Origin: Escherichia coli
Lineage (GTDB): Bacteria > Pseudomonadota > Gammaproteobacteria > Enterobacterales > Enterobacteriaceae
Reading direction: 5' to 3' (one strand)
Length of the DNA: 64,000 nt
Assembly (NCBI RefSeq): GCF_016903815.1
Contig: NZ_CP069973.1
Shown here: positions 10,547-12,833 of the stretch, in pieces
Layout: each line of letters begins with the position of its first letter
Numbering within the stretch: position 1 is the first letter of the stretch
Notes under the pieces: generated by a model
Databases searched by the model: none
What the model was told of the DNA's origin: nothing
Seen by the model: only the letters and a program-made list of their open reading frames with translations
Program-made: the position numbers and the translations under genes

Positions 10547-10954
10547 TTACTGCATAACAGGTTGAATGTCGTGGATACGTACAAAGCCTAACTGATCCAC
10601 AGAAATACCCTTTAACTGTAACGGAATATCAACATCGCTGGGGGCGAGGACGCTGGCAGGGGCGTTAATCAATTGATTCTGCACATTGATTTCCTGAAAG
10701 TTGTCTATTGTTCCCTGAATTTGCCCATATTCAACAGTTCCGCTGAATGCGGGCAAGGGATCATTCGACTCGCCCTGAATACGTAGCGTCAGGGTGGTGC
10801 CATCTGTATCAGGCGTAATATTCACCAGCGACATACGTAAAGTACCGATCTGGCTTTCCAGTCTTGCTGGTGTTTTCGCTCCAGGCAGAAGGTAAACCCC
10901 ACTGCTGGATTTTGCATTCAGCCTGTTTTGCTGAGTGATTTTGACTGTTTCTTT
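10547..10954 (-). pseudogene. yajI: yajI lipoprotein gene, 3' (C-terminal) fragment, separated from its 5' part by an IS insertion
   Basis: Open frame ...ETVKITQQNRLNAKSSSGVYLLPGAKTPARLESQIGTLRMSLVNITPDTDG...HDIQPVMQ lacks the N-terminus, which is found at 12705-12833. Upper boundary approximate. Confidence 0.7.
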
Positions 10955-11436
10955 ATCCGGTGCGCCGTAAAACCCCGTCCTTCAGGGCGGGGATATAAGG
11001 CGCGGTTTTCCACCTGACCAGGTGTTTGCTGTTGTTCAATGTATTGGCGGATGACGGATATTGGCGCACCTCCGCAGCTACTGGCAAAATAGCCAGGACT
11101 CCACAAAACGCCTTTGTAGTAATACCTGACTGCAATATCTGGTCGATCTCGTCGCAGTCACCTACCCGATACGCCTTTGAGGCTGTTTACCAGACTGGAT
11201 ATCGCCAGTTTGGGAGGATAGTTAATTAACAAATGGACGTGATCTGGTTCGCCATCCATTTCAACCAGTTCAGCTTCAAAATCAGCACATACATCTGAAA
11301 AGTAAGTGCGTGGTTTTTCTGTCGCGTCATGGTCAAAAATCTGGCGTCGGTATTTGGGACAAAGACCAGGTGAACATGCATCAGGAAAACACAATGCCTT
11401 CCACGCCGGATATCGGTTTCTTTTTTCACAGACCAA
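10918..11436 (-). pseudogene. tnpA: IS200/IS605-family Y1 transposase TnpA, inactivated (in-frame TGA and anomalous N-terminal region)
   Basis: One frame reads ...CPKYRRQIF...DHVHLLINYPPKLAISSLVNSLKGVSGR-[TGA at 11158-11160]-LRRDRPDIAVRYYYKGVLWSPGYFASSCGGAPISVIRQYIEQQ...; HUH motif and C-terminal catalytic region present but split by one stop. Only TTG/GTG starts are available, and a neighbouring frame (RHCVFLMHVHLVF) suggests a further frameshift. Confidence 0.7.
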
Positions 11437-11451
11437 AATATAATTTGACCT

Positions 11452-12609
11452 GTGAAACGACGACAGGCATTTAAATTCCAGTTAAGACCCGGTGGTCAAC
11501 AGGAGCGTGAAATGAGGCGCTTCGCAGGCGCATGTCGTTTCGTTTTCAATCGTGCTCTGGCGCTTCAGAATGAGAATCATGAGGCCGGTAATAAATACAT
11601 CCCTTACGGGAAAATGGCTTCCTGGCTGGTTGAGTGGAAAAATGCCACTGAAACGCAATGGCTTAAAGATGCCCCGTCACAGCCATTGCAACAGTCACTG
11701 AAAGACCTTGAGCGGGCTTACAAAAACTTCTTCCAGAATCGGGCTGCTTTTCCCCGATTCAAAAAGCGGGGACAGAATGATGCATTCCGCTACCCGCAGG
11801 GCGTTAAGCTCGATCAGGAAAACAGCCGTATTTTTCTGCCGAAACTTGGCTGGATGCGCTACCGGAATAGCCGTCAGGTCACGGGAGTTGTGAAAAATGT
11901 CACTGTCAGCCAGTCCTGCGGTAAGTGGTACATCAGTATTCAGACCGAAAGTGAAGTATCCACTCCGGTTCACCCTTCAGCATCAATGGTCGGGCTGGAT
12001 GCTGGCGTGGCTAAACTCGCCACGCTGTCAGATGGCACAGTCTTTGAGCCTGTAAACAGTTTTCAGAAAAACCAGAAGACGCTGGCGAGACTTCAGCGAC
12101 AGTTAAGCCGCAAGGTCAAATTCAGCAACAACTGGCAGAAGCAGAAACGCAAAATACAGCGACTGCATTCCCGTATCGCAAATATCCGCAGGGACTACCT
12201 TCACAAAGTCACAACGACCGTCAGCAAAAACCACGCAATGATAGTCATTGAGGATTTGAAGGTCAGCAACATGTCAAAGTCAGCAGCGGGTACGGTCAGC
12301 CAGCCGGGGCGCAATGTCCGGGCAAAATCAGGTTTAAACCGTTCGATACTGGATCAGGGCTGGTATGAAATGCGCCGCCAGCTTGAGTACAAGCAGCTCT
12401 GGCGTGGCGGTCAGGTGCTTGCTGCTCCGCCAGCGTACACAAGCCAGCGTTGCGCGTGCTGTGGTCATACAGCGAAAGAAAATCGCCTGTCACAAAGTCA
12501 ATTCAGATGCCAGGTATGTGGATATACAGCGAACGCCGATGTAAATGGCGCTCGTAACATTTTAGCGGTGGGGCACGCCGTTCTTGCCTGTGGAGAGATG
12601 GTGCAGTGA
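11452..12609 (+). CDS. tnpB: IS605-family TnpB (OrfB), RuvC-like nuclease with C-terminal zinc finger; candidate RNA-guided (OMEGA) endonuclease
   Basis: 385-aa ORF from GTG; N-terminus [10 protein letters not shown]...[14 protein letters not shown] typical of TnpB; candidate RuvC motifs VGLDAGV, IVIEDL and [10 protein letters not shown], with CxxC...CxxC (CACCGH...CQVCGY) between them. Confidence 0.85.
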
Positions 12610-12704
12610 GGCCGCTCGTTGAAGCAGGAACCCACCGAAATGATTCAGGCGACAGCCTGAACGTAGCAGGGATCCACGTCCTTCAGGGCGTGGAGGATGT
12701 CAAT
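12460..12704 (+). ncRNA. predicted omega (right-end) guide RNA of TnpB, overlapping the tnpB 3' end and the right-end hairpin
   Basis: Inferred from the general architecture of IS200/IS605 TnpB loci, where the guide RNA scaffold comes from the tnpB 3' end plus right end; the only sequence support is the right-end hairpin at 12676-12695. Extent not determined. Confidence 0.3.
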
Positions 12705-12833
12705 GAGTTGCGTCATCTCCTGGTTCAGCGTGCTGACGCTGTGTTTCATCTGTCGCACTTCGCTTTGCTGCACACAGGCGCTAAGGCTGAACAGGCTTCC
12801 CAGCAGGAGCAGTCGAAAAACGTTAGTATTCAT
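12705..12833 (-). pseudogene. yajI: yajI lipoprotein gene, 5' fragment (signal peptide and lipobox), interrupted by the IS element
   Basis: MNTNVFRLLLLGSLFSLSAC VQQSEVRQMKHSVSTLNQEMTQL has a lipoprotein signal peptide with lipobox LSAC; the frame then runs into IS-derived sequence (IDILHALKDVDPCYVQAVA) and stops at 12645. Confidence 0.7.

Follow-up and report, generated by a model that had tools for sequence, protein, structure and literature searches.

An old IS609 insertion in the lipoprotein gene yajI of Escherichia coli, with a dead transposase gene and an open tnpB

In the stretch of Escherichia coli DNA analysed here (64,000 nucleotides, referred to as the window) the lipoprotein gene yajI, lying between tsx and nrdR, is split by an ordinary insertion of IS609, one that is already annotated and published. 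Very probably the locus is the outcome of a single old insertion in yajI, in which the transposase gene tnpA has died, tnpB has survived, and retention of the element would be owed to TnpB and a guide RNA. By sequence match the whole window is identical to positions 443085-507084 of the strain 7/2 record NZ_CP023820.1, where RefSeq has already annotated the insert; a literature search on accession CP023820 found nothing. The split locus is made up of the following parts.

10547 to 10956, minus strand: yajI 3' fragment, from the second base of codon 44 to the stop codon, collinear with the yajI of an intact allele (L002)
10957 to 12703, plus strand: IS609 copy of 1747 bp, where other copies have 1748 bp, delimited by its junctions against the intact allele
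12704 to 12833, minus strand: yajI 5' fragment, with the start codon, signal peptide and lipobox LSAC, to the first base of codon 44
12645 to 12833, minus strand: open reading frame for a 62-residue stub, by translation 43 YajI residues (MNTNVF...EMTQL) followed by 19 from the IS right end

That an element of the IS200/IS605 family interrupts yajI had been proposed in the original prediction, and alignment against intact yajI, the check it had suggested, bears this out. With L002 as the intact allele the insert occupies 10957-12703 and so measures 1747 bp (about 1.75 kb had been foreseen), it lies inside codon 44 after the first base of that codon, its boundaries are unambiguous, TTTAT stands 5' of its left end and a target-site duplication is absent. 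On the plus strand the intact allele reads ...GTTTCTTTAT / TGAGTTGCG..., with TTTAT and TGAG directly joined at the stroke, and the window reads ...GTTTCTTTAT / CCGGTGCG...GGATGTCAA / TGAGTTGCG..., the insert being the part between the strokes. Rejoining 12833..12704 to 10956..10547 (minus strand) in silico restores a complete YajI of 179 amino acids that differs from the intact one in 1 amino acid and in 3 of 540 nucleotides, so that the two fragments are indeed contiguous in the uninterrupted gene, as had been assumed. The fragment ends first put forward (10547-10954 and 12705-12833) came within 1-2 nt of the exact ones listed above. The start coordinate first given, 10918, marks no element boundary, this position being only where a run-on reading frame from the tnpA pseudogene ends. 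A left boundary at 10952, where BLAST matches to other copies start, was considered and rejected: the TTTAT at 10952-10956 is host sequence in the intact allele, and the insert therefore starts at 10957.

For the host, the consequence of the insertion is the loss of full-length YajI, since the gene is split and the window encodes no complete product. The intact protein of L002 matches NF008575 (the SadB/YajI lipoprotein, PRK11530) over residues 1-179 with an E value of 3e-95, the 5' fragment of the window matches residues 1-45 of the same model, and RefSeq labels the 3' fragment a partial pseudogene of DUF3251/SadB-YajI type. The Salmonella lipoprotein SadB is a paralogue of YajI, for which no function is on record. 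The predicted 62-residue reading frame, with the YajI signal peptide and lipobox and an IS-derived tail, does exist at the listed position, and its 19-residue tail reads IDILHALKDVDPCYVQAVA. The stub might be expressed; a simple sigma-70 scan upstream of it found no promoter-like site, a result of little weight in either direction.

The insert is IS609. Against the K-12 copy, 40 of 1748 positions are different (97.7% identity), and 36 differences (97.9% identity) separate it from a copy with an intact tnpA, which RefSeq labels IS609-family and which encodes a TnpA of 143 amino acids; copies with at least about 90-95% nucleotide identity are counted as the same IS. Its ends have the organisation of the IS200/IS605 family.

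10952 to 10956, plus strand: TTTAT, host sequence bordering the left end on its 5' side and found once in the intact allele, the target and the predicted TnpB TAM
10973 to 10992, plus strand: left-end subterminal hairpin (DNA fold), an 8-bp stem with one T-G pair and the loop TTCA
12673 to 12694, plus strand: right-end subterminal hairpin (DNA fold), a direct repeat of the left-end hairpin
12700 to 12703, plus strand: right-end motif TCAA, the last four bases of IS609, identical in 8 of 8 copies compared

The two hairpins are direct copies on the same strand (19 of 21 positions identical), terminal inverted repeats are absent, and the TCAA end is reached 9-10 nt past the right hairpin. YTTAT immediately precedes the left end at each of the 7 distinct IS609 insertion sites compared, which include yajI, ydcO, a TetR-like gene between yjfZ and ytfB, yeaR-yeaQ, yfaY-yfaV and yedK. 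In these respects IS609 resembles IS608 and IS605, which likewise have subterminal hairpins on one strand, insert 3' of TTAx without duplication and have a TCAA right end; the details of the IS608 mechanism, including a right end that finishes in TCAA, were reportedly worked out by Barabas et al. in 2008 and by Ton-Hoang et al. The IS609 target is TTAT whereas that of IS608 is TTAC. In IS608 the TTAC target pairs with an AAAG that precedes the left hairpin; the window copy has AAAA in the corresponding four positions, which, taken with a TTAT target, would fit a recognition rule of this type. The arrangement of tnpA and tnpB is divergent as in IS605, in contrast to the co-directional genes of IS608.

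As to orientation, most of the window has positive GC skew and the cumulative skew rises, so the plus strand has the leading-strand sequence and is hence the lagging-strand template. The IS609 top strand (plus) is thus on the lagging-strand template, the orientation that the IS200/IS605 family prefers, its members having a bias for exactly this placement.

The original prediction had both a tnpA-like gene and tnpB in the insert, and both are present, the former as a pseudogene.

11014 to 11444, minus strand: tnpA pseudogene (Y1 HUH transposase), placed by alignment to the intact copy L006
11452 to 12609, plus strand: tnpB (insQ-type), 385 amino acids, with a match to NF040570

The intact IS609 TnpA, accession WP_000604943.1 and 143 residues long in copy L006, matches NF033573 (E 8e-43) as well as solved IS200/IS605 transposases, and is related to the TnpA of ISHp608 (E 7e-19), both being Y1 HUH enzymes. 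The tnpA of the window aligns with it throughout, and in it a Leu codon has become TGA at 11158-11160, one base pair is deleted beside 11357, and the natural TAG stop at 11014-11016 now reads CAG, so that the frame runs on across the left end to 10918; RefSeq remarks on the same gene that it is frameshifted and has an internal stop. With the transposase dead the window element is immobile on its own. Of the other copies at the yajI site, that of SMS-3-5 has the same TGA and 1-bp deletion as that of 7/2, that of 28Eco12 has a different stop and that of MS 69-1 has no lesion. The TGA is also found in K-12, where IS609 (insQ next to a tnpA pseudogene, in the ydcL-ydcO interval) has TTTAT on its left and TCAA on its right but occupies another chromosomal site. 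Strain 7/2 has a second IS609 at the yjfZ-ytfB site, with the same tnpA TGA and a full-length tnpB. Gene conversion between the two 7/2 copies was considered and rejected, since 35 differences separate them, a number no smaller than that between copies of unrelated genomes. A third IS609-like place is present in the same genome.

The disruption had been taken for strain-specific, and this does not survive a wider count. Of 5426 complete E. coli genomes, 340 (about 6%) carry the same yajI/IS609 junction, as counted with a 60-nt probe over the right junction, a 2.7-kb query giving the same number. The carriers include SMS-3-5, MS 69-1 and 28Eco12. The last of these was assigned to ST38 in a 2019 paper (PMC6963479) whose IS table has an IS609 at 3978710..3980457, within the yajI gene; it is the same element in the same gene and at the same junction (CTCA / ATAA when read along yajI). 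That copy is 1748 bp long, differs from the one in the window by 27 nt within the IS and has a tnpB of 402 amino acids. The idea that an active, autonomous IS entered yajI recently, and in this strain only, could call on the presence of both genes and on nothing else; with one junction shared by 340 genomes of diverged lineages, a tnpA broken by a nonsense codon as well as a frameshift, and copies at the yajI site that differ by up to 1.7%, it is scarcely credible and, by the distribution and divergence of the junction, already refuted.

The insertion is old, because the IS and its flanks have diverged by similar amounts. Among nine carrier loci compared with 5.6 kb of flank, which fall into four groups, divergence between groups is 0.75-2.0% in the flanks and 0.9-1.7% in the IS. 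A comparison at short range with strain AF34 (27 of 1748 differences in the IS, 3 of 954 in the flank) might be read as the IS evolving about 5x faster than its surroundings; with the 5.6 kb of flank and all nine loci this reading was rejected, and the AF34 contrast is a local mosaic and not a rate effect. The history is not purely vertical, because the left flanks of the 7/2, 28Eco12 and MS 69-1 groups are near-identical while 1.0-1.5% separates their IS copies and 1.0-1.8% their right flanks. The tnpA lesions of the 7/2 copy are shared with the SMS-3-5 group, and a mosaic of this kind in flank and IS is compatible with recombination whose breakpoint lay within the IS or close to it.

The near-identical left flanks beside diverged IS copies could also be put down to several independent insertions of IS609 at the same TTAT of yajI, a hot spot hit in different lineages. 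The tnpA lesions, which vary between lineages at this site, would suit that idea, as would the distances between copies, those in yajI being 17-29 differences apart and 23-45 from copies at other sites, and so only slightly closer to one another. Yet a target of 4-5 nt leaves thousands of TTAT sites to choose from, so that repeated hits on this one in the same orientation are improbable; IS divergence tracks flank divergence over the 5.6 kb, and differing later lesions are just what is expected in a gene no longer needed. Repeated insertion is thus distinctly unlikely, and yajI::IS609 is an old lineage marker that probably goes back to one ancestral insertion.

The protein encoded by tnpB has the features of an RNA-guided nuclease, as judged from its sequence. 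It matches NF040570 (guided_TnpB) with an E value of 4e-116 and 388 bits, the cutoff being 100, and a full-length alignment with the TnpB of ISDra2 (E 1e-54) has D, E and D at the equivalents of D191, E278 and D361 and both CxxC pairs of the zinc finger conserved. InsQ of K-12, of 402 amino acids, has C336Y in the first CxxC of the zinc finger, a change that the window TnpB is without. ISDra2 TnpB and the TnpB2 of ISGst2 (G. stearothermophilus) are characterised RNA-guided nucleases, whereas IS609 TnpB is known here from sequence, and a literature search on insQ with TnpB gave nothing specific to IS609. Upstream of tnpB a sigma-70 scan found no promoter-like site, a result that is uninformative.

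In the window tnpB ends at a premature TGA (12607-12609, from C to G at 12608; S386*), so that the product has 385 amino acids rather than 402 and its last 17 residues are lost. These residues fall outside the part that can be aligned with ISDra2 TnpB, the alignment ending at residue 372, and in ISDra2 TnpB the corresponding C-terminal tail is disordered and dispensable; the truncation need not abolish TnpB activity. The stop is private to the haplotype of the window (7/2), which occurs once each in 93 genomes, and the names of some of these strains (for example 'strain 405') may point to ST405.

Among the yajI copies other than 7/2, tnpB has a dN/dS of 0.2-0.25, with a deficit of non-synonymous changes (P 0.004-0.03). 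In pairs with the 7/2 copy the ratio is 0.31-0.50, and P for neutrality is 0.13-0.22 against 28Eco12 and MS 69-1 and 0.029 against SMS-3-5, so that most of these pairs are compatible with neutrality. On these substitution patterns tnpB has been kept in the other yajI::IS609 lineages and, with its premature stop as well, may be decaying in that of 7/2. Constraint on an open tnpB beside a decayed tnpA is also what would be seen if the tnpB of a tnpA-dead copy had been domesticated for a host function, for instance in RNA-guided regulation of the TldR kind. In contrast to nuclease-dead domesticated forms, the window TnpB has an intact RuvC triad, the predicted guide (below) matches only the empty site of IS609 itself, the 7/2 gene has a premature stop and near-neutral substitutions, and selfish retention predicts purifying selection equally well; domestication is very unlikely. 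Retention through TnpB and a guide RNA, as part of the single-insertion account, then calls for a guide, and candidates for its two parts lie at the right end.

12587 to 12703, plus strand: predicted guide-RNA (omega RNA) scaffold, overlapping the tnpB 3' end and the right end, from sub-threshold Rfam matches
12704 to 12719, plus strand: predicted guide segment of 16 nt, TGAGTTGCGTCATCTC, adjoining the right end on its 3' side and antisense to yajI codons 38-44

The scaffold is suggested by Rfam matches to RAGATH-18 at 12587-12630 (E 0.017) and to HgcC at 12603-12716 (E 0.012), both sub-threshold, at 29.5 and 24.9 against gathering scores of 44.9 and 50. According to PMC11061315, RNAs derived from RAGATH-18 are the guides of IS607 TnpB nucleases. 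The two matches sit where a guide RNA would be expected, in the position it has in characterised TnpB elements, which is not proof. The fold of the 3' region, with a z of -1.8, is not clearly better than that of shuffled sequences, and the E. coli copies of IS609 are about 98% alike and so offer no covariation for a guide-RNA fold.

The guide segment TGAGTTGCGTCATCTC occurs once in the window, and in the intact yajI it stands directly 3' of TTTAT, the pentanucleotide that is also the TAM of ISGst2 TnpB2 and that flanks IS609. In the occupied locus it is preceded by GTCAA and not by TTTAT, and the resident copy would thus escape targeting. The sequence prerequisite for cleavage of a donor joint is therefore present, since TTTAT immediately precedes the guide match in the intact allele. 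A donor-joint targeting model has been set out by Meers et al., with TTTAT as the TAM of the related ISGst2 TnpB2.

From the ends, the lesions and the distribution the following course can be proposed. IS609 would have entered yajI in a single ancient event, by the TnpA-catalysed single-strand "peel and paste" route, 3' of TTAT and without duplication, its top strand being placed on the lagging-strand template. It would then have been inherited, with probable homologous recombination among E. coli lineages (SMS-3-5, MS 69-1, ST38 and 7/2). If it works like the characterised TnpB elements, the nuclease would associate with an RNA that covers the 3' part of tnpB and the right end and takes the adjoining yajI sequence as its guide, and the complex would cut an uninterrupted yajI (TTTAT followed by TGAGTTGCGTCATCTC), which would favour retention. 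On excision the rejoined site would have both the TAM and the guide match and so be cut by TnpB, and repair from the sister chromosome would restore IS609.

A stronger version has TnpB and its guide RNA as an allele-specific nuclease that cuts intact yajI alleles, whether incoming or left by excision, with the insertion perpetuating itself in several E. coli lineages like a chromosomal gene drive. This stronger version is rather unlikely, and if true it would explain purifying selection on tnpB long after the decay of tnpA.

Beyond bookkeeping the significance of the finding is small. The yajI::IS609 insertion is a convenient lineage marker, with its junction in 340 of 5426 genomes and the S386* haplotype in 93, and since full-length YajI is lost throughout the carrier lineages, the protein is dispensable in natural isolates. 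The locus also offers a natural test case for a known idea about these elements, namely whether TnpB holds its element in place after the transposase has been lost.

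The locus at which IS609 splits the lipoprotein gene yajI is a mosaic. Comparison of the left flank (9364-10956, tsx and the yajI 3' fragment) with the right flank (12704-16733) among the 7/2, 28Eco12 and MS 69-1 groups of E. coli carrying the insertion gave merely 2-3 differences in 1594 nt on the left, in contrast to 39-71 in 4030 nt on the right and 17-27 in 1748 nt for the IS609 itself, and so a recombination breakpoint at or within IS609 is suggested. A variable spot lies close by, 2.2 kb from IS609, and is occupied in the window by a relative of the element:

8335-8793, plus strand: IS200C copy, a second IS200/IS605-family element, between secF and yajD

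Its tnpA is intact (WP_000526135.1). Among the carrier loci compared this secF-yajD spot differs, with IS200C present in MS 69-1, a RelE/ParE toxin gene in the SMS-3-5 group and neither of these in 28Eco12, Ch1 and Z142-2.

Further probable differences in gene content, relative to K-12, lie elsewhere in the window:

397-1854, plus strand: hypothetical protein, 485 aa, between malZ and acpH
17263-18834, minus strand: pentapeptide-repeat protein, 523 aa, between pgpA and yajO
47403-47863: SgrR-family regulator gene remnant (342 nt) and a 117-nt gene fragment, in the order queC, remnant, fragment, glnK

The first two are genes that are not known at these positions in K-12. At the third, glnK directly follows the 117-nt fragment, after queC and the SgrR-family remnant, and judged by the K-12 gene order the 5' part of ybaE together with cof, decR, mdlA and mdlB would be absent, presumably through a deletion of about 6-7 kb.

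Just beyond the right end of IS609 there is a potential signal for ending transcription:

12726-12741, plus strand: hairpin with a T-rich tail, resembling a terminator

It is placed 23 nt past the element and directly after the predicted guide, where the yajI 5' fragment is read in antisense. A transcript of tnpB or of the guide RNA could have its 3' end set here, but the hairpin could equally be due to chance. As to TnpB itself, one substitution concerns the K-12 copy:

L003 (locus with the K-12 IS609), 1502-2710: insQ, encoding the K-12 TnpB, C336Y

In the zinc finger the change falls in the first CxxC, which reads RCAYCGH in place of RCACCGH, whereas the cysteine is kept in the window TnpB and in all eight other copies compared, and so the defective TnpB may be that of the laboratory strain.

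Two of the lesions in the transposase gene tnpA recur in other IS609 copies:

11014-11016: natural stop position of tnpA, CAG replacing TAG
11158-11160: premature TGA stop in place of Leu98 of tnpA

CAG replaces the natural TAG in the majority of IS609 copies compared, and so the reading frame continues across the left-end hairpin into host DNA, ending at 10918 in the window; RefSeq flags copies with this run-on frame as 'missing C-terminus'. The intact tnpA of L006 keeps TAG, and that of L007, which like the L006 gene is annotated by RefSeq as complete at 432 nt, presumably ends likewise. The Leu98 TGA is common to IS609 at different chromosomal sites, namely ydcO in K-12, yajI in SMS-3-5, and in 7/2 both yajI and the TetR site between yjfZ and ytfB, and a single site can hold either TGA or TTA depending on lineage. 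By exact 33-mers the TGA allele is found at 3146 places in 2602 genomes and the TTA allele at 4459 places in 2531 genomes. This distribution implies that an already dead IS609 spread in trans, or else that gene conversion or recombination between lineages took place.
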